From: Promethearchaeia archaeon
GTDB lineage: Archaea > Asgardarchaeota > Lokiarchaeia > Sigyniarchaeales > SOKP01
Assembly (NCBI GenBank): GCA_029856145.1
Contig: JAHQWK010000004.1
Location: forward strand, 160,001 to 224,000
Reading direction: 5' to 3'
DNA length: 64,000 nt
Numbering within the stretch: position 1 is the stretch's first letter; each line of letters begins with the position of its first letter. A program made the position numbers and the translations under genes. The notes below the pieces were generated by a model. It was not told the origin of the DNA, made no database searches, and saw nothing but the letters and a program-made list of their open reading frames with translations. Below are positions 12,799-28,764 of this stretch, piece by piece.

Positions 12799-14340
12799 TC
12801 ATGATATAAATTTTGCTTTTAATTCTTGAGCAACCTTAGCAATTTTTTTCAGTTCTTCAAAATCTTTCTCTATCATTGATTTCATTATGTCAATCTTGAG
12901 TTTTTTAACTTTTTCAAGGGTTACAGAAAATTCCTTGTTGATATCATCATAGAGTTCATCGATGTTGTTATAAAGAATCTGAGCATGTTCTTTATCCATA
13001 ATCTCAGAGTTAATAATCATGTTTTGATATGAATTATTTAATTCATCTAACCAATTCCTTCCGAGTTCCTTTATTGGGAAAAGATCATCGAGTTTACCCG
13101 TTCTAATCGCTATTTCAAACTTATCTCTATAGTTTTCAAATAACTTCTTAAAATAATTATTGATTTTATTTTCAATAGCTTTTAAGTTAATATTTGGGTT
13201 CATAAAAAGAGTCACTGTATAATTGTCATAACCAAATATATTCATTTTCAAATTACTCCCTTTTAAGCCAAAACCTGTTAAGTTTTGAATGTTTAATTCT
13301 AAGGAAAACTTTTCAAGTGCGCTAATAAACATTGGAATTAATTCAAGATCAACTGGAATTATTGTATCGTCATTTGGCATACTTTGAGAAATAAAGTCTT
13401 TAAGAGCATCATCAAATAATTCAAGCTTTATTAAAGATTTTCCATCCTTATCTGCTATTATTGCTCCTATAATTGACGGTACTACTTCCTTTATTGCTAA
13501 TTTAGTAGGGACTAAACGCCTTTCAGATTTATTAAAAGGAGCAGATGAAAAACTGCTTAATATCTTATTGTATATAACTTTACCTTTATTTGTCAAGCTA
13601 AGAAGGTCTTTATTCTCAACGTGCTTTATTTCAATATGCCCTTTGTTAGCGAGGCTTTCAACAAGATAATTAGTTAATTTTTTAGGATGGTTTAATTTTT
13701 CATGAAGATTTTCTTTAGTAATTACAACTTCTTTATCAATTTGATGTATAAGTTTAATTGATTCATCAACAATATTTAATAGTAAACCTTCATCATCGGG
13801 TATAATATCTTGAAGACAGATTTTCATAATATCAATCAAATTTGAAAAAGTCTGGGTAAAATAATCCCTTTTTAAACTTGTAAATAAAAAATTTATTAAA
13901 TTTTCATTTGGAAATTCAGTTTTGACAAGTGATTTGATTTCCCTAACTTTTTTTTCACTCACTAGATCTATTTTATGTAATAAAACAAAGATATATGTTG
14001 AAGGTGTTATGGTATTCCTTAAATCTATTATTTTTCTTACGAATTTAAAAATTTCATCATAACTAGACACAATATCTATTACAACTAAAATCAGTTTAGT
14101 GCCAATGAAAATTCTTTTTTCATCTGTATCAAGCCATCGCTTATTTTCTTGTCCTGCAAGATCAAATATACCAACGTCTTGATTTAAACTAGGCAATCTC
14201 ATTATTAATGATTCTTCACCGTAGGTTGGTTCTAATGCATATTCTAATAATTTTGTTGAACTTTCACCTTCAAAAAAGACCTTACGGAGCGTTGTTTTTC
14301 CTGCACCGGGAGGTCCTACAAAGATAATTTTTTCACTCAT
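12799..14340 (-). CDS. Rag/Gtr-like GTPase + winged helix + roadblock/longin-like domain
   Basis: GPPGAGKTT, LEPT, DLAGQ, HKID, TSL; wHTH-like LVESLANKGHIE...LSLTNKG; AIIADKDG...LIPMFISALEKFS. ATG at 14340 overlaps the upstream stop (ATGAGTGA). Confidence 0.8.
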   Translation of the reverse strand: MSEKIIFVGPPGAGKTTLRKVFFEGESSTKLLEYALEPTYGEESLIMRLPSLNQDVGIFDLAGQENKRWLDTDEKRIFIGTKLILVVIDIVSSYDEIFKFVRKIIDLRNTITPSTYIFVLLHKIDLVSEKKVREIKSLVKTEFPNENLINFLFTSLKRDYFTQTFSNLIDIMKICLQDIIPDDEGLLLNIVDESIKLIHQIDKEVVITKENLHEKLNHPKKLTNYLVESLANKGHIEIKHVENKDLLSLTNKGKVIYNKILSSFSSAPFNKSERRLVPTKLAIKEVVPSIIGAIIADKDGKSLIKLELFDDALKDFISQSMPNDDTIIPVDLELIPMFISALEKFSLELNIQNLTGFGLKGSNLKMNIFGYDNYTVTLFMNPNINLKAIENKINNYFKKLFENYRDKFEIAIRTGKLDDLFPIKELGRNWLDELNNSYQNMIINSEIMDKEHAQILYNNIDELYDDINKEFSVTLEKVKKLKIDIMKSMIEKDFEELKKIAKVAQELKAKFIS

Positions 14341-15658
14341 TTTTATCAAGCAGTTTTTTTTTCAAATAGTAAACATTTTTTAGTTTTAATCTAATTTGAC
14401 CAATTATCCATATTAGTTTATTTGCACTAAGGGTCTCAGAAAGGCAAATTAAATTTTTAAGACTAAATTTTTTGTAATTCAAGCTATTCATAATGATATT
14501 AAAATTAGAACTTGAGAGGATTAAATGCTCAATTTTATCATTCATAGCCATGTTTTCAAAAGTTTTATTCAACTGTGTTATAAGTCTATGCGAATGATTA
14601 ATAATCACTGTATTAAAATCTTTAGACATCGATTGTACTATTATATTATCATTTAAGTTAGTTATAAAAAACATTGTTTTAGAAAAATCTCCAATTATAT
14701 CATCCAATATCTTTTTTAGATATATATTTTCTTTAGAAAAACCACTTAATAGTTCATAAAATGCGTTGTATAGGCTGTATATTAATTTTGGATAAATGCT
14801 TGTGTAATAAATAGAAATGTCAAATTTTCTTTTTATTTCATTAGTAATTTCCTTTAGAATCTTTCGTCTAGACTCCTTTCCAATCAGATCTATTTTATGA
14901 ATAAAAAGGATTACCTTGGCACTATAGGATTTATTAGTCATAATATCTCTAACTTTTTGGATATCATCTACAATTTGTTGGGAGTTAGAAACCCAAGTTG
15001 GATAATCGAATAGATATATAATAATATCAGTATTTTCAAATGCTAAGATATGATCACTATCATTTTCATTTTCCAGTAAATAACTTAACTCTTGTCCAGA
15101 AGAATCAAATAATCCTAATTTTAAATCCAACCATGAGTAGACAGATGGTGATATTCCACGTGTTGGTTCTAAAGGATTATATAATAAATCCTTGGGATTA
15201 TATCCTTCAAAAACAATTTTCTTAATACTTGTTTTTCCCGTACTAGCTCTTCCTATTAATAAGAATTTTTTTGTTGACGATTCTTCAAAAAAGGTGCCAA
15301 TTCTTTCCATAAAATATTTTTTTCTGTCATCCCTGGTTTTTTGTAAAGCTTTTTTTGAAAAATCAATAAATTTAGCTTTCAATGTATAAAGGTTAATCTT
15401 TTCCTTTTCATCAAGAATAATTACAAATATTTCATATCCTACATCCGTAACTTTAGATTTATCACAAAAACTCAGAATGGTTTGATCTTCATATGTAATC
15501 TCAATAATTTCGTCTTTAGTAAAATCTTCTTCATATGAATGAGTCATATATATTTTATTAATTAATTCATCTGTTAATTTTAAATCTAAAGGATATTTCA
15601 TCTCAAGTGTAGCACCCATCTTTGTATCCCAACTGAAGAATGCTAATCCTATAATCAT
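14333..15658 (-). CDS. uDENN/longin domain + Rag/Gtr-like GTPase + roadblock-like C-terminal domain
   Basis: MIIGLAFFSWDTKMGATLEMKYP N-terminus; GRASTGKTS, LEPTRG, DSSGQ, HKID, TSIY. ATG at 15658 follows a GGTGAT SD. Confidence 0.8.
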   Translation of the reverse strand: MIIGLAFFSWDTKMGATLEMKYPLDLKLTDELINKIYMTHSYEEDFTKDEIIEITYEDQTILSFCDKSKVTDVGYEIFVIILDEKEKINLYTLKAKFIDFSKKALQKTRDDRKKYFMERIGTFFEESSTKKFLLIGRASTGKTSIKKIVFEGYNPKDLLYNPLEPTRGISPSVYSWLDLKLGLFDSSGQELSYLLENENDSDHILAFENTDIIIYLFDYPTWVSNSQQIVDDIQKVRDIMTNKSYSAKVILFIHKIDLIGKESRRKILKEITNEIKRKFDISIYYTSIYPKLIYSLYNAFYELLSGFSKENIYLKKILDDIIGDFSKTMFFITNLNDNIIVQSMSKDFNTVIINHSHRLITQLNKTFENMAMNDKIEHLILSSSNFNIIMNSLNYKKFSLKNLICLSETLSANKLIWIIGQIRLKLKNVYYLKKKLLDKNE

Positions 15659-15668
15659 GTTTAAATTA

Positions 15669-17804
15669 TCACCTATTTTTTTCCTCAAATTTTTTAGATA
15701 TACTAAAAGTAAATGTAGATCCCATACCTAAAACACTTGTGAAGGTAATTTCACCACTATGTAATTCAATAAGCCTTTTAGTTAATGACAATCCGAGTCC
15801 AGTTCCAGGCACAGATCGTACATATGTGGAATTAACTCTTTTAAATTCTTTAAAGATTAAAGGAAAATCTTTGCGTGCTATTCCTATCCCTGTGTCTCTT
15901 ACTTTAAAAACCCATTGATTATACCCTTCTTTAACTATTAATTCAACTTGCCCTTCAATCGTAAATTTAATAGCATTACTTACCAAATTCAATAAAATTT
16001 CCTTAAATCTAATAGGATCAGCAAATATAAATTTTTCTTCTTTTAATCCTTTAATCTTGAATTTTAAATCTTTTTTACTATATAAAGGTTTTAGACTGGA
16101 TTTAATTTGATCTATCATAGGGTTCAAAGGAAACTTCTGAATATTTAAGGAGATCTGTCCAGATTCAATTTTAGAGATATCCAATATATGTTTGATCATA
16201 TCAAATTGATGTTCAGCCGAACTTTTAATATCTGTTATAAATTCCTTTTGTTCCTCATTCAATTGCCCATAAACTCCTTCTAAAAGCAAATCAGCGAATC
16301 CAATTATAGCATTCAACGGAGTTCTTAATTCATGCGACATAGTAGCCATAAATTCTGTTTTGAACTGTGATGATTTTACAATTTGATCTAAATAATATTT
16401 CTGTTGTTCAAGGGCTTCATTTAATTCTCTTGTTCGAATTTGAACTTCGGTTTCTAATTCATCTTTAAATTTATGTTCTAAAAGCTCTACCTTCTTTTTT
16501 TCAGTAATGTCTTCAAAAATCAGTTGAATTAAAGTTTTAGCATCCTGCTTTATGACAGATGCTTGAATTTCAACCCACAATAAATCTCCTTTAAAAGTTT
16601 TAACTTTGACTTCTATAGGTTCAGGAAAATCTTTTAAAAAAGAGGTTTTGAAAATTTGTTTAAAATATTTTTTAATTTCTATATGAAAAATATTATTATA
16701 AGCATCAATGGATTTTCCAATGATATCACTTCGATCCAAACCGAATAAAACTTCTGTTGTAGGATTAGAATCTACAATAATACCATTCAAATCAATAATA
16801 AATATTGCATTAGGAGAATTATCAAATAAAGCCTTATATCTCTCTTCAGCTAATTTGCGCTCATTAATATTCCTTGAAATTATCAAGCCTTTCAATTCTT
16901 TATCTCTATCAATAATAATCTGTCCACTACACTCAAACCAGAGCCAATATCCCTCCTTATGCTTAAATCGTAATTCAATCACAGATTCTCCTGGTTGAAA
17001 TCCTTTCTTAAAAGTATTAACGGCTCGTTCAACATCCTCCGGATGAATATATTCTAGAGCAGAGTTTCCTATAACATCCTTCTTTCGATATCCTAATAAT
17101 CTGAAGACAGTTTCTTCATTTAAATATTCGAATTTAATTTTACGGTCAATTATAACTATGAGATCATTAATGTTTTCAATAATAAGACGATATTTTTCTT
17201 CAGATTCTTTTAACAGATTTTCCATTTTACTTCGTTCTAAGGCATTTCCAATAATTTGTGATGATATGCGTAAAGGTGACAAATCACTCTCTTTCCATTC
17301 TTTTTGTATTGAATCATTTGCATACCCTATAAATCCAGCTAAATCTGTTTTAATATAAAGTGGGAATACTAATAAAGATCTAATATTATTAAGGTTCAAT
17401 AATCTTTTTGTAGCTTTAGCTTCATCTGGTAAACTTGAAGCATCATAAACATTAATTATATTTCCCCTTCTAAGTTGCTCGTTCCACCATGGAAAACTAT
17501 GAACCCATGAATTTTCAAAGTATTGAAATAGTGGATTTATTCCTTCTGTACACCATTCATATGTGTGATTTAAATTAATTCTGTTATCATTAAAAATACA
17601 CAAAACAACACGACTAGCTCCACTTAAAATTCCTATATCACGTAGTGTAGCATTAATTGCATCATTAATTTCTATATTTCCAAGAAAACGGGAGGATATT
17701 GTATAGGCTAAAACCTCTAAACTTGACCAGTTCTTAAATATTCTATCTGCTTCTTTAACTAAATTTTTTTCAGTCCCTGAAATTTCTTTTTCTCCTAAAA
17801 ACAC
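15669..17804 (-). CDS. Cytoplasmic sensor histidine kinase GAF-PAS-PAS-HisKA-HATPase
   Basis: HTYEWC GAF, IHPED PAS, MSHELRTPLN, NLVSNAIKF, DTGIGI, GTGLGL. Confidence 0.93.
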   Translation of the reverse strand: MFLGEKEISGTEKNLVKEADRIFKNWSSLEVLAYTISSRFLGNIEINDAINATLRDIGILSGASRVVLCIFNDNRINLNHTYEWCTEGINPLFQYFENSWVHSFPWWNEQLRRGNIINVYDASSLPDEAKATKRLLNLNNIRSLLVFPLYIKTDLAGFIGYANDSIQKEWKESDLSPLRISSQIIGNALERSKMENLLKESEEKYRLIIENINDLIVIIDRKIKFEYLNEETVFRLLGYRKKDVIGNSALEYIHPEDVERAVNTFKKGFQPGESVIELRFKHKEGYWLWFECSGQIIIDRDKELKGLIISRNINERKLAEERYKALFDNSPNAIFIIDLNGIIVDSNPTTEVLFGLDRSDIIGKSIDAYNNIFHIEIKKYFKQIFKTSFLKDFPEPIEVKVKTFKGDLLWVEIQASVIKQDAKTLIQLIFEDITEKKKVELLEHKFKDELETEVQIRTRELNEALEQQKYYLDQIVKSSQFKTEFMATMSHELRTPLNAIIGFADLLLEGVYGQLNEEQKEFITDIKSSAEHQFDMIKHILDISKIESGQISLNIQKFPLNPMIDQIKSSLKPLYSKKDLKFKIKGLKEEKFIFADPIRFKEILLNLVSNAIKFTIEGQVELIVKEGYNQWVFKVRDTGIGIARKDFPLIFKEFKRVNSTYVRSVPGTGLGLSLTKRLIELHSGEITFTSVLGMGSTFTFSISKKFEEKNR

Positions 17805-17840
17805 GTTTTTAATTTTTCCTCATTTAATTTTCATTTTATA

Positions 17841-20768
17841 TCATAAATATTTTAATAATTCTTCTACTCTAAGACTGTTTGTTATCTTTTTAGGGATATA
17901 AAAAGAAAATGTTGATCCCATCCCTAATTTACTTGTAAAAGAAATATTTCCACCATGTAAATTAATAATTCTCTTGGTTAGAGACAATCCTAAGCCTGAA
18001 CCTGGCATAGAATCAACATATGGAAATTTTACCCTTTTAAAATCTTTAAATATAATGTTAAGATCTTCTTTAGCAATTCCTATTCCTGTATCTTTTACAT
18101 TAAATTCCCAATTATCTTTTTTATCTATAAATTCAAATGTAACAGTCCCCCTTTCAGTAAACTTTATGGCATTACTTAGTAGATTATAAATAATTTGTTT
18201 AAATTTAAGTCGATCAGCTAATATAATCTGTTTTTTTTTCACATCTTTTAATTCAATCTTTAAATCCTTTTTGCTATATAGGGATTTTAAAGTTGAGATT
18301 ACTTGATTAACTAGATCATATAATTGGATATTGTCAATTTTTACAGAAACTTGCCCCGATTCAATCTTTGATATATCTAGGATATTTGATATCATATCCA
18401 ATAAATGTTTTGATGATTCTTCAATATCTTTAATGAATTCTAATTGTTCTGAATTTAATTGACCGTAAACTCCTTCCAGGAGCAAATCCGTAAAACCAAT
18501 AATGGCATTTAATGGGGTTCTTAATTCGTGAGACATAGTTGCTAAAAATTCTGTTTTAAAATGAGATGCTTTTAAAATCTGATCTAAATACAGTTTTTGT
18601 TGGTCAAGCGCAACTTTCAATTCTTTGGTTCTCAGTTTAACTTCCCTTTCTAATTCTTGACTAAACTTCTTTCTTAAAGCTTCTGCTCTCTTTCTTTCGC
18701 TGACATCCCGGAAAAAACCTTTAAAACCAATTATTTCTCCATTAGAATTATATCTTAAATATACAGAAGTTTCTTGATATATTCTGTCCCCATCTTTTCT
18801 TATAACTTGAGAATTAATTAATTTGAATCCTTCTCCTTTCTTATATAAATCATTATATACACGAAATACTCTCTCTTTGGTTTCTTCATCAAACACCATG
18901 CTATAACTCTTATTTAATAATTCTTCACGTGAATACCCGCTACTCTTACATAACGCATCATTGAAAAATGTGAAATTCCCTTCAAGATCAACTTCAAAAT
19001 ATCCTTCATTAATATTTTCAAGCACACTTCTATATTTTTCTTCTGACTCACTTAATTTTTGTTCAGCTTTCTTACGTTCGGTAACATCTACAAGTGCAGC
19101 CAAAATTGCGTCTTTTCCTTGATATTGGATAGTTTTAGAATAGGTGTCCATCCATTTTATTTCACCATTTTTAGTAAAAATCCTATACATTCTGTCGAAT
19201 TTCTCATCAATCAATCCTTTTTGTCTATGGCTCAATCGTTTTATAATAAGACCTCTATCCTCAGGATGAACAACATTGAGAAATTCTTTCATGGACCATT
19301 CTTTTATTTCTTTTTCAGAATATCCCAACATTTTCGTAATGGTTTTATTTATATATTGGATACTAGAATCCTTTATTATACAAATCCCCATAAAAGATTG
19401 TTCGGTGATCTCTCTAAAGTTTTCTTCAGATTCTTTTAAGCGTTGTTCTGATAATTTTCGCTCGGTTATATCTCTTGAGACTGTTATTGCTCTTAATTGA
19501 TCATCAGACCCCTTAAAGACTGATCCCGTTGTATCTACCCAGATATAATTTCCATTTCTGTGTCGAAGTCTTAATTCACCCCTTCCTCTGCCCCTTTTAA
19601 AACTCTCTCTTATTATTTTTAAAGCTCGCTTAATATCATCTGGATGGATAATATCATGTCGGGTCTTTCCTAACATATCTTTATTATTATATCCTAAAAT
19701 TCTTTGATATGTATTTTCATTTATATATTCATGTTCATATTTACTATTTAGAACCACAATTAAGTCATTGGCATTTTCAGTAATTAAACGATACTTCTCT
19801 TCTGATTCTTTTAACTTTTTTTCGATTTCAGCTTTTTCTGTAAGATCATTATAAATGGCAACAATCTCCCCAGAAGGAAGTTTATATACGTAGTTTTCCC
19901 TCCAACCAGCGATTCTCTCGTCCTGGTAAAGAGAAATAGGGTGATATAATGGTTCTCCTGTCTTCCACACCCTTTGAAAAACTTCAAAAAGACCAAATTC
20001 TTTTATACTTGGAAAGATTTTTGTGACTTTTTTACCAATAACCTCTTTTTTCTTAATCTTTTCTATTTTTTGAGCTGCTAAATTTAAATCTTTAAAAATA
20101 AAGGCTTCACCATTATGAATCGCCTTATATACTGCTACACCACTACTCATTGTGTTAAAAAGTTCTCGATATCTTTTTTCAGATTCTTTTAATATATCTT
20201 CAGTTAGTTTTCTCTCAATTGCGTTTCCAATTATTCGTGAAGAAATTTGCAATAGATTTAAATCCTCTTCTACCCAATTTCTCAACTCTAAATCATCATC
20301 GAATCCTATAAATCCTCCAATTTCACCATTGATATACAAAGGAATAGTTATGTTAGCTTTTACTCCATGATTTTTCAATAAATTTTTAATATTTTTAGCT
20401 TCTGGTGGAAGTCTTGAAACATCTTCAATAATTAGTGGGTTTCCTTTAAGAAGTTGTTTTATTACCCATGGAACTTCGTTCAATTGCAAGTGTTTATAAT
20501 CATTAATATGAGATTCTGCATTCACATTACACCATTCATGAGTATTTATCATATATGGTTTTTCTTTATTAAAGAGGAAAATGAAAACCCTACTGGCATG
20601 TATAAATTCCCCCATATCAGCAAGCGATTTATTTATAACTTTATCAAGTTCATAATTTCCAACAAATCGGGAAGAAATCGATGAAACTAGTTTCTCAAAC
20701 CTTAGTTTTCTTGTAATTGATATATCTTCTTTCACTTGTGTAGTTTTATCTCTCAAATTAGACACCAT
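17841..20768 (-). CDS. Cytoplasmic sensor histidine kinase GAF-(PAS)x4-HisKA-HATPase
   Basis: NTHEWC GAF, four ESEEKYR/DITE-bounded PAS units, MSHELRTPLN, NLLSNAIKF, DTGIGI, GSGLGL. Confidence 0.93.
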   Translation of the reverse strand: MVSNLRDKTTQVKEDISITRKLRFEKLVSSISSRFVGNYELDKVINKSLADMGEFIHASRVFIFLFNKEKPYMINTHEWCNVNAESHINDYKHLQLNEVPWVIKQLLKGNPLIIEDVSRLPPEAKNIKNLLKNHGVKANITIPLYINGEIGGFIGFDDDLELRNWVEEDLNLLQISSRIIGNAIERKLTEDILKESEKRYRELFNTMSSGVAVYKAIHNGEAFIFKDLNLAAQKIEKIKKKEVIGKKVTKIFPSIKEFGLFEVFQRVWKTGEPLYHPISLYQDERIAGWRENYVYKLPSGEIVAIYNDLTEKAEIEKKLKESEEKYRLITENANDLIVVLNSKYEHEYINENTYQRILGYNNKDMLGKTRHDIIHPDDIKRALKIIRESFKRGRGRGELRLRHRNGNYIWVDTTGSVFKGSDDQLRAITVSRDITERKLSEQRLKESEENFREITEQSFMGICIIKDSSIQYINKTITKMLGYSEKEIKEWSMKEFLNVVHPEDRGLIIKRLSHRQKGLIDEKFDRMYRIFTKNGEIKWMDTYSKTIQYQGKDAILAALVDVTERKKAEQKLSESEEKYRSVLENINEGYFEVDLEGNFTFFNDALCKSSGYSREELLNKSYSMVFDEETKERVFRVYNDLYKKGEGFKLINSQVIRKDGDRIYQETSVYLRYNSNGEIIGFKGFFRDVSERKRAEALRKKFSQELEREVKLRTKELKVALDQQKLYLDQILKASHFKTEFLATMSHELRTPLNAIIGFTDLLLEGVYGQLNSEQLEFIKDIEESSKHLLDMISNILDISKIESGQVSVKIDNIQLYDLVNQVISTLKSLYSKKDLKIELKDVKKKQIILADRLKFKQIIYNLLSNAIKFTERGTVTFEFIDKKDNWEFNVKDTGIGIAKEDLNIIFKDFKRVKFPYVDSMPGSGLGLSLTKRIINLHGGNISFTSKLGMGSTFSFYIPKKITNSLRVEELLKYL

Positions 20769-20823
20769 TTTATCTCCTCAATCTTCAACCCAAATTTGAT
20801 GAAATGATTAATTTTTATTTAAC

Positions 20824-21705
20824 TTAATCTTCTTTCTCCTTAAGATAGAGAAAAATATTAAAAAATTCAATCTCTTTATTGAAATGTGAATTTTCCATAT
20901 TAATACAATCTCTTTCTAATCCAATTTTAAAATAATATGCTCTATTAGTTAATTTAAAGAAGTCGTATTCATCAAAACTTTCTACAACACCTAATTTCTC
21001 TAACTCTTCTATATAGAGTTTGGCCTTTTTAGAATTGATTTTAAATTTTTGAGATACATCATCGATACTATACTTTACATTAATATCGGATTTTAATATC
21101 ATAGATAATTGGTTTTTCAGCTTTTGAAATTCTTCACTCTTGATTGGAATTTTATTTCTTTTAATAATTAAATTTAAAATTTCTGAAATTATACAAAAGG
21201 TATTATAAAAGTTGTCTTTTGTAATAGATGTTTGATATATCTCAAAATCCTTACCTTGTGGATGTTGAATTGTAATGAACTCTTGGATAGTCTTTAATTT
21301 ACTACATACATAGGCATTACTCCTAAGATCTATTTTATGTAAAAAAGCAATAATATTACATGAATGAAGGTGAAGATCTTTTTTCACTTTATATATATTG
21401 ATTAAAAATTTAATTATAGATTCTAATGAATTTCCAATGTCAAAAACACAAATTATGATATTACTTTCACTAAATACATCTTTCCCTTTATCTGAAAACC
21501 AAGTTTCATTTTCTTGTCCTGCTAAATCAAAGACTCCTAAATCAGTATTAGATGTTGTATAAATTCTAGAGCTAATCCCTCTTGATGGTTGCAAAGGTTC
21601 TTCTAAAAGTGAAATTGGGCTCACTTGATCGAAATAGACTTTCTGGAGTGTTGTTTTTCCTACTCCAGATGGACCAACAAGAACAATTTTTTTTCTACTT
21701 ATCAA
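20824..21705 (-). CDS. Rag/Gtr-like GTPase with C-terminal winged helix
   Basis: GPSGVGKTT, DLAGQ, HKID, TSI; C-terminal SIDDVSQKFKIN...YIEELEKLGVV...FKLTNRA. Confidence 0.8.
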   Translation of the reverse strand: MISRKKIVLVGPSGVGKTTLQKVYFDQVSPISLLEEPLQPSRGISSRIYTTSNTDLGVFDLAGQENETWFSDKGKDVFSESNIIICVFDIGNSLESIIKFLINIYKVKKDLHLHSCNIIAFLHKIDLRSNAYVCSKLKTIQEFITIQHPQGKDFEIYQTSITKDNFYNTFCIISEILNLIIKRNKIPIKSEEFQKLKNQLSMILKSDINVKYSIDDVSQKFKINSKKAKLYIEELEKLGVVESFDEYDFFKLTNRAYYFKIGLERDCINMENSHFNKEIEFFNIFLYLKEKED

Positions 21706-21740: not shown

Positions 21741-22424
21741 TTATTGCATGGAATTTTTTAGATATTTTTCTAGAGATATAATTATATCTTTACATGATTC
21801 TAACATCATTTCTATAAAATTTATTAAATTCTCATTTGATAGACTTTTATTTTCCTTTTTATCTTCTAAAATTAAATCACAAAATCCTTGAATTGTATTA
21901 ATACCACTACGAATTTGTAGATTAAATCTTTCTAATGGAAGAATTTCATTTTTTTTTATATAGATATAGCTTAATTCTTTAAAAAAACTCTCAAATACAT
22001 TTTTATCATCTGATAATATTTTATCTTCACCAATTTTACGAAACATCATTTCAATTTTTCTAAAATGTATTATAGGAATTAAAGGATATTCGATATCACG
22101 AAGTAAAATGATAGAATATAATTGCTTTCCACCTCGAGCATTATTATCTTCGACTTCGATTTTATAGATTTGAGAATAGAAATAATTAAAATCTAAAATT
22201 ACAAATTGATTTTTTGTATTTAAAGCATCTCTTAGAAGATTTCTAATAAAATGTTTCTGTCTTTCAATATTGACTGACGTGTATATAGCTCTTGGTCCTA
22301 GGGTATGATCATATTTACCAATAATTATTATGAAAGGATTTTTTTCTAAAATTGATTGAAAATTCTTATAAGTATCCGAAATTTCATTTTCTATGGATTC
22401 TTTTGTTAAATTTTTTTCTATCAT
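21741..22424 (-). CDS. uDENN/longin-like domain fused to a degenerate His-less HisKA/DHp helix pair
   Basis: IIIGKYDHTLGPRAIY; ARGGKQLYSIILL; C-terminal LQIRSGINTIQGFCDLILE aligns to SHELRTPLNAIIGFADLLLE of the neighbouring kinase. Confidence 0.65.
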   Translation of the reverse strand: MIEKNLTKESIENEISDTYKNFQSILEKNPFIIIIGKYDHTLGPRAIYTSVNIERQKHFIRNLLRDALNTKNQFVILDFNYFYSQIYKIEVEDNNARGGKQLYSIILLRDIEYPLIPIIHFRKIEMMFRKIGEDKILSDDKNVFESFFKELSYIYIKKNEILPLERFNLQIRSGINTIQGFCDLILEDKKENKSLSNENLINFIEMMLESCKDIIISLEKYLKNSMQ

Positions 22425-22658: not shown

Positions 22659-24158
22659 ATGTCAGAATCTGCAAAAACAATCATAAAATATTTCTGTGAT
22701 CGATTTCTTGACTTAGATTATTATCCAACTAATTTAAAAACCATATTAGATTTGGAATTAGATAAATTACGAAGTATAAAAGATGATGAAATAGAGAAAT
22801 TTAAAAAAATCGATATCGTGAGTCTACGCGACCTTACTAAACTAGAGGATTATGGATTTGAAAATTTGATTGAAAAACTGCATATTGAAAAATCAACTAT
22901 AAAAAATGCTCTTATCGCATCAACTCTTATATCTAACGCTTGGAATAAAAGGAATTTATATCTGAAAAAACAAAAATTGAAGGTTGTAGTGGCTGGTCTT
23001 GATTTCGCGGGTAAAACATCTCTCATAAATAGATTGATTAATGATTATAATTATAATGATATGGCTAATCTAGAACCCACAATAGGAGCAAATGTAGAGG
23101 AATATCAATCTGATAAATTAGATTTAATTCTCTGGGACCTTGGAGGACAGAAAGATCATGTAGACGAATATCTTGCTTCTCCAGAAAGTTTTTTTATAAA
23201 CGTAGATATCATGATATTTGTAATTGATTCACAAGATGATGTTAGATATTTAGAAGCTGTAAACTTTTTGAATGATATAATTGATATTCTCAAATTCTTG
23301 AAAGAGAATCCTTTTATTGTAGTTTTATTGAATAAAGCAGATTTAGATATCAGAAAAGATCCTGATTTTCAAATTAAGCTTGAATATCTAGCAGATAAAA
23401 TTTCAGAGATTTTTAAAAAATCTGAAAATCCTTGGAATTTTGAGATCATTCCCACAAGTATTTATAATTATTATTCTAATCAACCAGAAATAGTTAAAAG
23501 TATTAAAAATATCTTTTCAAAAGGAAAAGAGGAGACAGATAAAGAGATTGTGATACCTGACATTGAAGAAAAATTTCAGAAAATTTTAGATCTTAATCTG
23601 AAATTGATGGATAAATTCGTATCTGAGCTTGCGGAAATTAAACGAGCTTTACTACGATTAAATCCATCAGATATAACTCAATCTCTTTTTTCAGTTCCTT
23701 TCAAAAAAGTACAACCAGATTATATATCTCCAGACTTAAAATCAAATGGAAAAAGTAAAAAAAAGAAGAAGAAAGCTAAAATTGATGAATTTCAAAAAAA
23801 GAAAAAAACTAAAAAAGGTTCAGGACCTCCAAAACCACTGCCAACACACCCTTCTTTAAAAATAGAAGAAGAAAAAATAGTTAAAAACGAAAAACTCACA
23901 ACTAAGAAATTAGAAAAAGTTAAATCTTCTTTAAAATCAAAATCTCAATTATCTAAGATGTCATCTAGTCCACCAACAGCTCCACTAACAACACCTAAAC
24001 AGGATGAAATCAACTTAAATTCGCTTAAACCTCCACCTCCCCCTCCAAGAATTTCAACAAGTGGCAATATTAGATCAACCTCACCTAGAGGTGAAGTCCT
24101 TTCAGAATTAAAAGAAATGTTCTTGAAGCGAGGCTTAGTCAATCGTTATGACTTCTAA
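22659..24158 (+). CDS. Arf-like small GTPase with N-terminal helical domain and C-terminal basic, proline-rich and WH2-like tail
   Basis: GLDFAGKTS, EPTIG, WDLGGQ, NKAD; tail KSKKKKKK...PPPPPP...RGEVLSELKEMFLKRG. Confidence 0.8.
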   Translation: MSESAKTIIKYFCDRFLDLDYYPTNLKTILDLELDKLRSIKDDEIEKFKKIDIVSLRDLTKLEDYGFENLIEKLHIEKSTIKNALIASTLISNAWNKRNLYLKKQKLKVVVAGLDFAGKTSLINRLINDYNYNDMANLEPTIGANVEEYQSDKLDLILWDLGGQKDHVDEYLASPESFFINVDIMIFVIDSQDDVRYLEAVNFLNDIIDILKFLKENPFIVVLLNKADLDIRKDPDFQIKLEYLADKISEIFKKSENPWNFEIIPTSIYNYYSNQPEIVKSIKNIFSKGKEETDKEIVIPDIEEKFQKILDLNLKLMDKFVSELAEIKRALLRLNPSDITQSLFSVPFKKVQPDYISPDLKSNGKSKKKKKKAKIDEFQKKKKTKKGSGPPKPLPTHPSLKIEEEKIVKNEKLTTKKLEKVKSSLKSKSQLSKMSSSPPTAPLTTPKQDEINLNSLKPPPPPPRISTSGNIRSTSPRGEVLSELKEMFLKRGLVNRYDF

Positions 24159-24363: not shown

Positions 24364-25227
24364 ATGTCGAATAGTGACAAAAAAACAAAGGAAATGGAAC
24401 AATATGAGCAAGAGACTGGAAAACAAGCAATTTGGCAGGGAAAAACCACTAAGGGATTCCTAAGATGGAAAAAAGGTGAAAAAAATTATTATGCTGATAA
24501 AAAAAGAATTTCCGTTTATGTATCAAGTGAAACTGAAAGGAATTGGAAGGAATATATTAACACACATAAAATTACTTCATTTTCTAAACTAATTAGAGAA
24601 AGCGTTAATTATTATATTAAAGAAAGATCTAAATTTGGTGGAAATTTATTTCCGGATTTAGAAACTAGTACTAAATCTAAAATGACTCACACTTTGAAAG
24701 AAAAGCTAACAACGATAAAAGGATTTTCGCAATTATTACTTGAAAAATATAGTGGGAATTTAAATGATGAAATAAAAACGATTATTAATAATGTCTTGAA
24801 GGAAACTAAACAATTGGAAAATAAATTCATAGTTCAATTAGAAGAAAAAGAATTTAAACCTTCACAATATGATATTTTACTCATTGAAGATAATTTGTCT
24901 ACTATAGATTTATTGAAAAATTATTTTGAAAGCAAGGGGTATTCTTTTAAAGGAGTATTAACAGGTTTGGAAGGAATTGAAGAACTATCCTCGTCTACTC
25001 CAAAATTAATATTGCTGGATATAATTTTACCAGATGTTAGTGGATATGATATTTGTAAGGACATAAAATCTAATATGAATTTAAAAGAAATACCTGTATT
25101 TTACTTAACTGCTTTACCCGGTATTAACGTAGAGAATAAAATAGAAGAAACAATGGCAGATGGTTTTATTTTAAAACCTTTTGATTTACTAGATTTAGAA
25201 TTTTTATTTGATTATCTCCAAACTTAG
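24364..25227 (+). CDS. Ribbon-helix-helix + HisKA/DHp (no ATPase domain) + receiver protein
   Basis: KKRISVYVS...FSKLIRESVNYYI (RHH-like); THTLKEKLTTIKGFSQLL (H-box-like); IEDN, LDIILPD, LTA, KPF (REC). Confidence 0.75.
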   Translation: MSNSDKKTKEMEQYEQETGKQAIWQGKTTKGFLRWKKGEKNYYADKKRISVYVSSETERNWKEYINTHKITSFSKLIRESVNYYIKERSKFGGNLFPDLETSTKSKMTHTLKEKLTTIKGFSQLLLEKYSGNLNDEIKTIINNVLKETKQLENKFIVQLEEKEFKPSQYDILLIEDNLSTIDLLKNYFESKGYSFKGVLTGLEGIEELSSSTPKLILLDIILPDVSGYDICKDIKSNMNLKEIPVFYLTALPGINVENKIEETMADGFILKPFDLLDLEFLFDYLQT

Positions 25228-25763
25228 CACAAATAGCATTTAAGTCAATTAATTACTTGTTTTAAACATAGTTGTCATTACTTATAATTGGAAGTGAAAT
25301 TTAAATCTAATTCTCCAACCACATTTGAGATATTATTTATTATATATTGATATCTCATTTCGGAATCATGTAATACATTTTCAATTTCAGTCAATTTTTA
25401 TACAACCCTTTTAATTTTTAAGAAGATTAGTAAATTAAGAATTAAATCGTCTTTTTTTTAGTAATTTACGTTATTTTTAATCCTAATCTTTTACCCAATT
25501 TTGAAGTAAGTTAACTTTTTATTTAATAAATTCGATGATAATGTTGAAACTAGATCATAGGCATATTTTTTTGCACTACTAAACTTGATTTAGGTAACCT
25601 TAAAAATAAAAAATTTTATCTCTAGTGTAAATATTAAAAAATTTTGCATCTGATTCAACTTGATAATAATCACTATAATTTCGAGAATTTCAAAGTGTAA
25701 TCGATCATACTTTATTATGTAAAGTGTTACGCAATTATTAAAAGAAAAGAGTATGAATTTAAC

Positions 25764-26714
25764 ATGCCGGAAAAAATAACTTTGATAGGAAGAGCGGGGG
25801 TTGGAAAAACAAGTATACTTAGAGTATTATTCGAAGGAGAATATTCTAAAGATCTTATGATTAATCCGCTTGAACCTACACGTGGTATAATACCTAAGAT
25901 TTATTCATGGATGGACATAGAATTAAGTATTTTTGACACTTCCGGACAAGAATTACCATTTCTGTTAGAGGATGAGAATGAACAGATGATCGCCTTTGAT
26001 AAGGTTGCTATTGTTATCTACATCTTTGATTATCCAAATTGGATAAATCAATCTCAAGATATTGTTAATGAAATAAACATGGTATTCAAAATATTAAAAC
26101 TTAAAAATATTGAAAATAATCTTGTATTAATCTTTCATAAGATTGATTTAATAAAACAAAAAGCTAGTGTTAATTACCAGTTAATGAAAAGTGGAATTAA
26201 AGAACGATTAAATCTCCCAAAAAATATACCTCTTTACCTTACAAGTATATCTCCAGAATTAGATTTCACATCATATAATGCTTTTTCTGAGATATTGAGT
26301 AGTTTATCACAAGATTCCAATAATTTAAAGTTAATTGTTGATGAAAAGATCAGGTTTCTCTCAGAATCGATCTGTTTTATTACTAATAAAGAGAATTTTA
26401 TAATAGTTCAATCAATTACACAAGATTTCAATACAGATTTAATTTATAAATTATATATTTTGGTTTCCTATTATGTAAAATCTATTTCTACAAATAGTGA
26501 TTTTGAAAATGTTATTCATTCAATTGATTCAACGACCCTTACTTTAAGCTTAATTGTTAGTAATCTTGAAAATTTAAATCCAAATCTTAAAAACTTAGTT
26601 TTAATATCGGATACTAATAACAAAGATGATTTATTCAAGGTAAAGGAAAATATAAAGTTAGAGATTGAAAAATATTATGATTCTGCTGATAATAAAAATA
26701 TCAAAAAGAAATAA
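25764..26714 (+). CDS. Rag/Gtr-like GTPase with roadblock-like C-terminal domain
   Basis: GRAGVGKTS, LEPTRG, DTSGQ, HKID, TSI; collinear with the GTPase part of 14333..15658. Confidence 0.82.
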   Translation: MPEKITLIGRAGVGKTSILRVLFEGEYSKDLMINPLEPTRGIIPKIYSWMDIELSIFDTSGQELPFLLEDENEQMIAFDKVAIVIYIFDYPNWINQSQDIVNEINMVFKILKLKNIENNLVLIFHKIDLIKQKASVNYQLMKSGIKERLNLPKNIPLYLTSISPELDFTSYNAFSEILSSLSQDSNNLKLIVDEKIRFLSESICFITNKENFIIVQSITQDFNTDLIYKLYILVSYYVKSISTNSDFENVIHSIDSTTLTLSLIVSNLENLNPNLKNLVLISDTNNKDDLFKVKENIKLEIEKYYDSADNKNIKKK

Positions 26715-26813
26715 CAACTGAAAATCACTATATTTTCTTAGGTAATTTCTATTCTAATTCTGAAAATTGTTAAGGAATATTAAACATAATATATTTCTAT
26801 TAAGATCCTTCAT

Positions 26814-27103
26814 TTAAGTGTAAATATGTGAAAAAGTCTCTACAGTTTTTACAATATCTGTAGCTAAATAATTTTACTTAAACACTGAAGCAAAGAAAGC
26901 ACGATCTCTTGGGTTGAAATAATTATACCCAAACTTTTTCCATTCAATACTGACTTGTAAAGGGGCAAAAAGAGAAATCTGATCTTTCATTAAATTCATC
27001 AATAATAAGTTTCTCTCTTGCAGAGTATTATTAGATATAGTATTTAATAAAATACATTCACTAAAAAAATCCCAAGAATCCTTAAATTGAATACAGAATT
27101 TTT
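26814..27103 (-). pseudogene. Degenerate copy of the 3' end of the amidohydrolase gene (29574..29863)
   Basis: Ungapped nucleotide similarity at offset 2760 (taaatatgtgaaaaagt..., tagctaaataatt..., cattcaatact...); CAG>TAA premature stop at 26874-26876. Confidence 0.9.
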
Positions 27104-27105
27104 AT

Positions 27106-27201
27106 ATAGAAGGAAGGAGAAAAGGATTATTATTATATTGATAATAAAAGAAATTCTGGCTCTGTATCAAGTGAAACTGAAAAGAATTGGTAGAAATTTA
27201 T
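27106..27201 (+). pseudogene. Relic fragment of the RHH-DHp-REC gene (about 24463..24556)
   Basis: tgtatcaagtgaaactgaaaagaattgg versus tgtatcaagtgaaactgaaaggaattgg; the following AAG has become TAG. Confidence 0.75.
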
Positions 27202-27210
27202 GAATTATTT

Positions 27211-28764
27211 TTATTGTCCCTTTATATCATCATCTATATTCTTTATAATTGGTAGTGAAAAATGGAATATACTTCCTTTATTTTTACCTTTTGATTCAAC
27301 CCATATCTTCCCTCCATGTAAATCTATAATCTCTTTTGAGAAATATAGCCCTAATCCAATCCCATCAGAAATTATGTCCCAACCTTTTCCATATCTCTCA
27401 ATCTTTCCAAACGGTCTAAATAATTGTTCTATTTCTTTTTTCTGTAAACCTATTCCATTATCTTTAATAGAGATTATTATAGATTTTTTATTGATTCGAG
27501 ATTGAATAGTAATATTACCTTCTTTAGGTGTAAATTTAATTGCATTCTGTAAGAGATTTATAAATACGCTATAAATTTTATTTTTATCAAAATCTATAAA
27601 TAGTTTATCATGAATATCTATAATTAATGTGTGTTTTCTTAATTTAATCAATCCCTCCATCTCTGCTATACTCTCTTTAATTAAATCATGTAGATTTTCC
27701 CGATTTAAATTTAATTCTATTAACTGCCTATCTAACATTATACATTCTATGAAATGATCTATAAGTAATTTCAGCTTATCTGCTCCTTTATCGATCTTCT
27801 TCAAAGATGATATTGTATCATTATCTAGATTTTTCCTAGTCTCTGTTAGTAAAAATTTAGAAAATCCCTTAATAGATATGAGAGGTGTTTTGAACTCATG
27901 TGAAAACCTTGTTAATAAATTTGATTTCATTTCTTCCATCTCTTTTCTTTCAGTAATATCTTGCACCCATAATCTTAGAGTCGCCAAAGATCCATCATCT
28001 TGATAATGAGGTAAGATTTTTCCTGATAACCAAATAATTCTCCCTTCTTTGTTAATTATTTTAAACTCTATATTTCTTTCATCAAATAATTTTTTAATAT
28101 TATGAATATCTTCTGGATATACCGCTTTATAAAAAACTCCTTCATTTTTTAGTTCTTCTTGGGTATAACCAATAATCTCTAACAATCTAGGATTAATATA
28201 AATAACTCCTCCTTTTGTAGAATCAATCTCCAATAACCCCATTGAAGATGTTTCGATTAAATTCCGATATTTTTTTTCCGATTCTTTTAATTTTTGCTCG
28301 GCTTTCTTATGTTCGGTAATGTCTCTTAAGAATCCTTTATATCCGATTTTTTCTCCCTTAATATTGTATCTTAAATAATCAGAGGAATCAACAAATAATT
28401 TTTTCCCATTCTTTGTGATAATTTCATATTCACCTGAATTAAATCCTTTTCCTGCTTTATATAGGTTGTTAAACCCACTTAATACTTTCTTTCTAGTTTC
28501 TTCATCGTATAATTGACTATATTTCATATTCATTAAGTCTTCATTTGTATAACCAGTACACTCTCGTATTACGTTATTGCAATAAGTAAAATTACCTTTA
28601 AGATCAAGTTCAAAATAACCATCCTTAAGAATTTCTATTATATTCTTATATTTTTCTTCTAATTTTTTAATGGATTCTTCTAATTCTTTTATTTGTATAA
28701 GTAAATAATTGCTATCCCTTTCATATTCGTTCTTATTTTTTTCTAAATCTTGTTTAAAATGAAT
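27211..28764 (-). CDS. PAS-PAS-HisKA-HATPase histidine kinase with probable ATT start
   Basis: FSHEFKTPL, NLLQNAIKF, DNGIGL, GIGLGL. The frame stays open 77 codons upstream of ATG 28533 and encodes the first half of PAS1 (LEEKYKNIIEILKDGYFELDLKGNFTYCN), back to ATT 28764 placed 8 nt after GAGGT. Confidence 0.85.
   Translation of the reverse strand: MHFKQDLEKNKNEYERDSNYLLIQIKELEESIKKLEEKYKNIIEILKDGYFELDLKGNFTYCNNVIRECTGYTNEDLMNMKYSQLYDEETRKKVLSGFNNLYKAGKGFNSGEYEIITKNGKKLFVDSSDYLRYNIKGEKIGYKGFLRDITEHKKAEQKLKESEKKYRNLIETSSMGLLEIDSTKGGVIYINPRLLEIIGYTQEELKNEGVFYKAVYPEDIHNIKKLFDERNIEFKIINKEGRIIWLSGKILPHYQDDGSLATLRLWVQDITERKEMEEMKSNLLTRFSHEFKTPLISIKGFSKFLLTETRKNLDNDTISSLKKIDKGADKLKLLIDHFIECIMLDRQLIELNLNRENLHDLIKESIAEMEGLIKLRKHTLIIDIHDKLFIDFDKNKIYSVFINLLQNAIKFTPKEGNITIQSRINKKSIIISIKDNGIGLQKKEIEQLFRPFGKIERYGKGWDIISDGIGLGLYFSKEIIDLHGGKIWVESKGKNKGSIFHFSLPIIKNIDDDIKGQ

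Follow-up and report, generated by a model that had tools for sequence, protein, structure and literature searches.

What might an archaeal small GTPase do with a long, basic and proline-rich tail that ends in a conserved helix? The question is raised by a gene in a 64,000-nucleotide stretch of DNA (positions 160,001 to 224,000 of contig JAHQWK010000004.1, from a Promethearchaeia archaeon; the whole stretch is called the window below). The gene, an open reading frame (ORF) at 22659-24158 on the + strand, encodes a GTPase of 499 amino acids (57.5 kDa, isoelectric point (pI) 9.0), and its start codon assignment is right, since M1 and S2 are invariant among the orthologues. The answer proposed here, to which we would give a probability of roughly 0.6, is that the protein carries a docking device for one conserved partner, the identity of the partner being left open.

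Conserved islands in the tail of the GTPase

Full-length orthologues number more than 160; they have 445-526 amino acids, and all of them come from metagenome-assembled genomes of Loki-type (Promethearchaeota) Asgard archaea. In an alignment of 32 orthologues, reaching down to 48% identity, the tail consists of near-invariant islands between freely varying linkers. In order along the tail (all on the + strand), these are the linear motif QSLFSVPF[EK]KV (23679-23711), with P347 invariant and F348 nearly so; a lysine-rich stretch; a GPPK[RP]L motif (here GPPKPLP, residues 389-395, 23823-23843); a PPxAP motif (here PPTAP, residues 438-442, 23970-23984); the proline run LKPPPPPP (residues 456-463, 24024-24047); and the terminal helix, R-x-x-[IV][IL]-S-E-L-K-[ED]-[LM]-F-x-K-R-G-[LI]. 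P391 and P442 are nearly invariant, and L456, P458, P459 and P462 are invariant or nearly so; within the helix, R477, E483, L484 and K485 are invariant and F488, R491 and G492 nearly so. The lysine-rich stretch is made up here of two runs, KSKKKKKKAK (residues 365-374) and KKKKTKK (380-386), together at 23751-23816; most orthologues stay basic in this region, the exact residues drifting. The proline run is encoded by mixed CCN codons, in surroundings of about 25% G+C.

The terminal helix, SPRGEVLSELKEMFLKRGLV (24081-24140), has RGEVLSELKEMFLKRG as its core at residues 477-492. A whole-protein AlphaFold2 model, built with the 32 orthologues, predicts a helix at residues 476-490 (predicted local distance difference test score (pLDDT) about 74), and a 22-column profile of the helix matches it in its own genome at 41 bits (E=6e-10). 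The same model has about 145 residues between the long helix that follows the G domain and the terminal helix as disordered. The last 144 residues have a pI of 10.3, and include 31 Lys, 19 Ser and 17 Pro. All of the strings quoted in the first-pass annotation of this gene (the lysine runs, the proline motifs and the terminal sequence) are present in the ORF, and the order that it gave, of G domain, helix, basic runs, proline motifs and terminal helix, is real and is conserved in the orthologues; conservation of the motifs, which it had proposed as a check, is borne out by the islands just described.

The shortest informative case is the orthologue of the cultured Promethearchaeum syntrophicum MK-D1 (P0122), which has 383 amino acids and a tail consisting of seven prolines, an 11-residue basic linker, RNDVMSELRKVFKLRN, and no more. 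Polyproline plus a short basic linker plus the helix is the minimal conserved unit. Some orthologues (at L032, L033, L057, L058 and L065) continue for 35-45 residues beyond the helix, in a partly acidic extension (for example EEELEEGEEIEEEIENEDSNS) that contains no Trp. In 3 genomes (G091, G120 and G060; loci L010, L025 and L029) the orthologue is split, with the tail and helix in a separate frame of 40-136 amino acids, which could be due to assembly error, to decay or to an interrupted gene.

The tail is preceded by two folded domains. The first of these, a conserved helical domain (residues 1-102, 22659-22964), has a pLDDT of about 85 in the whole-protein model, and of 84.5 when modelled alone (predicted template modelling score 0.73). 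It is unmatched in Pfam, the G domain being the sole Pfam assignment in the protein. With Foldseek the only matches were weak ones, to the helix-hairpin-helix (HhH) parts of RadA/RAD51 paralogues, Dpo4 and BAF (E about 0.2, probability 0.9-0.99), and with low confidence the domain may be described as HhH-like. The second is the G domain (residues 105-290, 22971-23528), in which the P-loop GLDFAGKTS (22995-23021), the switch I residue Thr141 (23073-23093), WDLGGQ (23133-23150), NKAD (23331-23342) and TSI (23451-23468) are intact and invariant in the 32 orthologues. With its G1-G5 motifs invariant throughout the family, the GTPase is expected to be active. The G domain is followed by the long helix (residues 301-334, 23559-23660; predicted by AlphaFold2 at 301-333), which is kept in the orthologues and in a 412-residue paralogue discussed below.

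The first-pass annotation named the protein an Arf-like GTPase, and here its G domain and its N-terminus have to be taken separately. Pfam Arf matches residues 99-270 at 82 bits, against a cut-off of 22.3 (E=4.5e-23), and Gtr1_RagA matches the same residues nearly level with it, at 78 bits (E=9e-22). Foldseek ranks LokiRagO (8yl2) and Gtr1 at the top, followed by Arl1, Arl3 and Arf6. The protein is a member of the Arf/Rag superfamily, with an intact G domain of that type, and the label "Arf-like" is only approximate. The feature of a true Arf that does not hold is the membrane switch, an N-terminal amphipathic helix or myristoyl-Gly: the N-terminus, MSESAK..., falls inside the folded 100-residue helical domain.

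A portable polyproline-plus-helix module

Runs of at least five prolines are found in only three of the 5235 ORFs in the whole genome (counting ORFs of at least 50 amino acids), and two of these three finish in the same helix. The helix profile finds exactly three genomic loci at E<1e-7, the next match being at E=1.9. With the conservation in the orthologues, this puts the tail motifs beyond what chance would give. The three proteins that end in the module are the 499-residue GTPase, a paralogous GTPase of 412 residues, and a 149-residue protein with a coiled coil and polyproline. The 412-residue paralogue (G000:C9:503512-504750; L084:6513-7751, +) has 29% identity to the longer protein across the N-terminal domain, G domain and long helix, and keeps the terminal helix without the proline run in this genus; its relatives P0246 and P0253, from other lineages, have runs. 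On the 5' side of the paralogue there are a gene for a 1242-residue protein and a TFB-like gene.

The 149-residue protein (G000:C18:40581-41030; L083:6582-7031, +) presents the module in stand-alone form, and no other carrier is as widespread. The protein consists of an N-terminal helix, a coiled coil and a Gly/Pro region with PPPPPP, and ends in ...SLRGAIMGELKSLFAKRK; the PPPPPP is encoded by GC-rich DNA within an AT-rich genome. The 20 small proteins fetched share one common plan, with GGPPPPPG-type repeats, and those of the family of MK-D1 have a C-terminal poly-Asp stretch of 2-11 Asp and no Trp. In Lokiarchaeum ossiferum the small protein (16.1 kDa) has PPPPPGR twice and PPPPGR once, followed by the helix and then by DDDDDD. 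It is worth adding that an Elf1-like zinc-ribbon gene adjoins the small-protein gene both here and in L. ossiferum.

Across 301 Asgard genomes, the helix profile finds its match in 66 of the 68 genomes of the same GTDB family, in 6 of the 7 of the family of MK-D1, and in 1 of 226 elsewhere, this last one being marginal. A search of 1.84 billion representative proteins gave 47 matches; with 5.8 billion proteins searched, there were 472 (E<=1). The matches listed from these two sets are Arf-like GTPases of 396-502 amino acids, Pfam-less proteins of about 45-250 amino acids (the long GTPase being the source of some of these, as fragments) and a single fusion to a Zn-ribbon, with the motif nearly always C-terminal. 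There are no eukaryotic proteins among them, and no fusion of the module to gelsolin was found among the three gelsolin-domain proteins of the genome or among the best 47 and best 120 database matches of the two sets. A search of the ESM Atlas added nothing beyond generic coiled coils and Asgard clusters without names. The identity of R, E-L-K and F is preserved over three protein architectures and two GTDB families, and by this distribution the polyproline-plus-helix end is a portable module. No description of the GTPase tail or of the module was found in the literature, and Arf/Rag-type GTPases of Asgard archaea that bear an effector-like tail in their own chain seem to be undescribed so far.

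What the terminal helix may bind

We propose that the N-terminal domain, the G domain and the long helix would together hold out the near-invariant short helix on its disordered, basic and proline-rich tether. The helix would be the peptide on which one conserved partner protein docks, and the GTPase would decide where and when the partner is engaged, under the control of its nucleotide state. Probable regulators of the GTPase, in turn, would be the adjoining longin-type protein and the histidine kinases and receiver proteins encoded nearby. Docking is suggested because R, E-L-K and F are invariant across the three architectures, because the helix stands at the terminus, and because the tether is flexible; identity of residues across different architectures fits a stereospecific contact with a protein.

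The single most likely partner, put forward tentatively, would be Lokiactin, the helix entering its hydrophobic groove in the way that arcadin-2, WH2 and gelsolin bind their actins. Three considerations make it the best single candidate: the coupling of polyproline to the helix; the fact that Asgard archaea have, to our knowledge, neither a known filament nucleator or elongator nor an established route by which signals reach actin; and the precedent of arcadin-2. Arcadin-2 has a C-terminal helix of 17 residues that binds the groove of crenactin with a Kd of 31 nM (PMC5173319).

Taken one step further, the module could be an archaeal element for actin assembly or tethering, of the WASP or VASP type, and the whole protein a single-chain, signal-gated actin regulator following the logic of Cdc42-WASP or Rac-WAVE, whether convergent or inherited; we regard this as possible and as some way short of probable. 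The helix would bind G-actin in the Lokiactin groove in a WH2-like manner, the proline run would load profilin-actin or recruit another actin-loading factor, the lysine runs would attach to F-actin or to acidic lipid, and the whole would be gated by the GTPase, with its nucleotide state set by the histidine kinases and a longin-type GTPase-activating protein (GAP). The order of the parts, with a basic region, polyproline, and an amphipathic basic helix 11-20 residues on, is that of the eukaryotic factors, and the rarity of polyproline in the proteome, together with its coupling to the helix in two cases out of three, points the same way, as do the GGPPPPPG-type repeats of the small proteins, the poly-Asp ends of those in the family of MK-D1 and the acidic extension of some GTPase orthologues. 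The actin and profilin that the first-pass annotation had named for Asgard archaea have counterparts in this genome, which encodes Lokiactin, three actin-related proteins (ARPs), two proteins weakly like profilin and three with gelsolin domains, none of which contains the module motif. There is also room for such a regulator, in that a Nature paper of 2026 on crawling in Asgard archaea mentions gelsolins and profilins alone as regulators of their actin, and lists formins and Ena/VASP filament polymerases under the metazoan and amoebozoan machinery (PMC13716822). WH2-like motifs of LKKT type are reported in Asgard archaea solely within gelsolins (PMC9433394).

The direct comparisons with known motifs tell against an actin-assembly module, and they do not support the earlier reading of the terminal helix as a WH2-like motif. 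Pfam WH2 (PF02205) has no match in the tail at E<=10; in the whole genome it matched none of the three module loci, its best match elsewhere being at E=1.7, and it matched none of 45 motif peptides. The motif profile, run against 177,635 PDB sequences (E<=10), found no WH2 chain, and nothing beyond a designed protein at E=10; the sequences in this set have a minimum length of 20 residues, and the 17-residue peptide of 5LY3 presumably fell outside the comparison. Nor did the profile find a eukaryotic WH2 or VASP protein among the 1.84 billion representatives. The hydrophobic residues at i, i+1 and i+4 of a WH2 helix have their counterpart in the conserved [IV][ILM]xxL, which lies in the predicted helix. 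The LKK[TV]-type motif that should come after it does not: K490, R491 and G492 are conserved, and position 489, the Leu of LKRG, is L, V, I, K, Q or M in the orthologues and S or A at the equivalent position in the 412-residue paralogue and the small protein. WH2 identity was rejected on the strength of the Pfam model, the PDB profile search and the non-conserved Leu. As far as sequences can tell, the likeness that is left lies in the layout and in the first nine residues, R-G-x-Φ-Φ-x-x-Φ-K, and does not amount to membership.

The wider description of the tail as WASP-like fares better in its layout than in its parts. The sequence of basic region, polyproline and helix stands, with the conserved LKPPPPPP 13 residues before R477 in the place of the upstream proline-rich region of WASP and WAVE. 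It is not a VCA region (WH2, connector helix and Trp-bearing acidic end), since there is a single helix, no C helix, and no Trp in the acidic extensions. The suggestion that the polyproline binds profilin runs contrary to published work, in which VASP polyproline is reported to be bound weakly by Heimdall and Thor profilins and not by Loki profilin-1 and -2 (PMC8410842). A likeness to VASP looks good by eye and scores no better than shuffled sequence: against the motif profile, the human VASP GAB peptide scores -2.4 bits, a value reached by 1146 of 2000 shuffles, and the FAB peptide -1.7 bits, reached by 1130 of 2000 (peptide sequences from PMC10340426). There is no EVH1 domain, Pfam having no match outside the G domain. 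The MIM1 motif of ESCRT-III was also considered. Its consensus is (D/E)xxLxxRLxxL(K/R), and when the hydrophobic residues are aligned the consensus Arg falls on the invariant Glu and the final K/R on Phe, so that this candidate was rejected.

A Lokiactin pull-down from L. ossiferum includes an "Arf GTPase" together with BAR-domain proteins (bioRxiv 10.1101/2025.11.30.690169; PMC13716822). The "Arf" tag in those data, GNAMCCOK_04696 (38.1 kDa), fits a protein of 329 amino acids and 38.12 kDa (G382:C1:5471999-5472988, - strand; L129:1237-2226), which combines an Arf-like G domain with some 130 residues of C-terminal domain and has no tail, and the gene of which is adjoined by a Ras-like gene. 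The pulled-down Arf being this tail-less protein, the result is not transferable to the tailed GTPases. Tag 04085 (56.4 kDa), one of the top pull-down proteins, was considered for its suggestive size, but the sole GTPase match near its estimated position has 344 amino acids, and this link was dropped. We note that, of the three proteins that stand beside Lokiactin in the pull-down sheet, GNAMCCOK_04250 (20.6 kDa, log2 5.1) and GNAMCCOK_04085 (log2 4.5) are enriched above Lokiactin (log2 4.44), and that neither is in the preprint's identifier table (bioRxiv 10.1101/2025.11.30.690169, supplementary table 2, pull-down sheet). The third of them is GNAMCCOK_02875 (9.5 kDa).

Several points weigh against the proposal of a docking helix with Lokiactin as its likeliest partner. 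Every formal homology test of the helix against actin-binding motifs failed. The helix in its present form is almost confined to one order, whereas Lokiactin is pan-Asgard, and the 499-residue long form is patchy even in its own GTDB family, with 32 of 135 genomes having it when a strict cut-off is used. Actin genes are absent from the neighbourhood of the GTPase. The tailed GTPase has no orthologue in the L. ossiferum genome, and the Arf pulled down there with Lokiactin is a different, tail-less protein. Finally, tags 02234-02245, among which the small protein is expected at about 02239, are absent from the pull-down rows listed, which is a weak negative.

Two further explanations do without a separate protein partner. 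The first, which we consider unlikely, would have the tail anchor the protein in the membrane. An amphipathic terminal helix, together with the lysine runs, would tether the GTPase to acidic membrane, in the style of the K-Ras polybasic tail or the C-terminal helix of MinD or FtsA, with the prolines as a stiff spacer. This would suit a GTPase that lacks the N-terminal amphipathic helix of a true Arf and has a tail as basic as this one, and the helix of the small protein reaches a D of 1.3-1.6 on a HeliQuest-type index. The helix of the 499-residue protein does not: it has a hydrophobic moment of 0.18-0.27, a net charge of +1 and a D of 0.5-0.6, which by the HeliQuest thresholds is not the strongly amphipathic membrane helix of MinD/FtsA type. 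The weak amphipathicity of its helix makes an anchoring role less likely for this protein; in addition, the invariant Glu, the polar residue (Glu, Asp or other) next but two, and the identity over three architectures are unusual for lipid-binding helices. The second, an autoinhibitory latch in which the helix folds onto its own G domain or N-terminal domain until freed by GTP, with the identical helix of the small protein competing in trans, has a parallel in the comparable intramolecular latch of helix and domain in WASP and suits a motif almost restricted to these GTPases and one small protein, but is very improbable, since L. ossiferum keeps the small protein without any tailed GTPase and the helix must have another receptor there.

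Neighbouring genes and comparison with known systems

Across genomes, the gene that most constantly accompanies the tailed GTPase encodes a 227-residue longin/folliculin-like protein (21741-22424, - strand; weak Pfam Folliculin match at 4.7e-4) and is divergently transcribed. At most of the orthologous loci that were compared it adjoins the GTPase gene; at three more, that of MK-D1 included, it lies within a few kb. The 227-residue protein probably regulates the tailed GTPase, and is the obvious candidate for a GAP or guanine nucleotide exchange factor. Around these two genes (12799-21705 and 24364-28533 in the window) there is a conserved island, which encodes four Rag/Gtr1-like GTPases (516, 451, 293 and 316 amino acids), PAS histidine kinases of 711, 975 and 440 amino acids, and a DHp-receiver protein of 287 amino acids. 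The island genes are syntenic in most orthologous loci, with gene order largely kept, and the two-component island named in the first-pass annotation is thus real. A scan for promoters and terminators gave no signal exceeding that of shuffled controls.

Asgard archaea have a dynamic actin cytoskeleton that drives movement and reshaping, with profilins and gelsolins as its only known regulators. The tailed GTPases bear in their own chain a portable, conserved peptide module, laid out like a eukaryotic actin-assembly tail, and are encoded among kinases, a receiver protein and a longin-type regulator. A 25-residue peptide of the helix is a ready bait for the partner, whatever is bound, and there are two cultured carriers, MK-D1 with the orthologue P0122 and L. 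ossiferum with the small-protein form. Should actin prove to be the partner, archaea would have their first link from a GTPase to actin; if it does not, the tailed GTPases would still define an undescribed effector arm of the Asgard small GTPases.

Four known systems invite comparison. With WASP, WAVE and WIP, in which WH2 (PF02205) is combined with a proline-rich region, the module shares a short helix R-G-x-Φ-Φ-x-x-Φ-[KR] followed by basic residues, and its position 11-20 residues after polyproline, at the close of a disordered basic region in a GTPase-linked protein. Compared with WH2, the helix of the module is longer, at four turns, and continues directly into K-R-G without a linker. Compared with WASP and WAVE, there is no C helix or Trp-bearing acidic end, and the GTPase is part of the same chain here and a separate activator there.

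The EVH2 region of Ena/VASP (human VASP GAB 223-239, FAB 259-278; PMC10340426) likewise has a proline-rich region and then a short basic helix, and its coiled coil is also present in the small-protein form of the module. The FAB motif, Φ-M-x-E-Φ-x-x-Φ-Φ-x-R-R-K, is similar by eye. The differences are that the coiled coil and helix come in the opposite order, and that the archaeal proteins have no EVH1.

Arcadin-2 of Pyrobaculum (PDB 5LY3; PMC5173319) is an archaeal protein whose C-terminal helix binds the groove by itself, and the module helix is like it in position and length. There is no detectable relation in sequence, and arcadin-2 relies on a Trp that is missing from the module helix. The arcadin-2 gene adjoins that of crenactin, whereas the gene of the tailed GTPase adjoins no actin gene, and arcadin-2 has neither the GTPase nor the polyproline.

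With the ArfL, ArfR and RagGtr GTPases of Asgard archaea (bioRxiv 10.1101/2024.02.28.582541; LokiRagO, PDB 8yl2), the protein has the WDxGGQ, NKxD and TSx motifs in common. It differs from them in having a 100-residue helical N-terminal domain in place of the amphipathic helix and in having no roadblock C-terminal domain, and it adds to their common core an extension that we did not find described in the literature, the 200 residues of long helix and tail.

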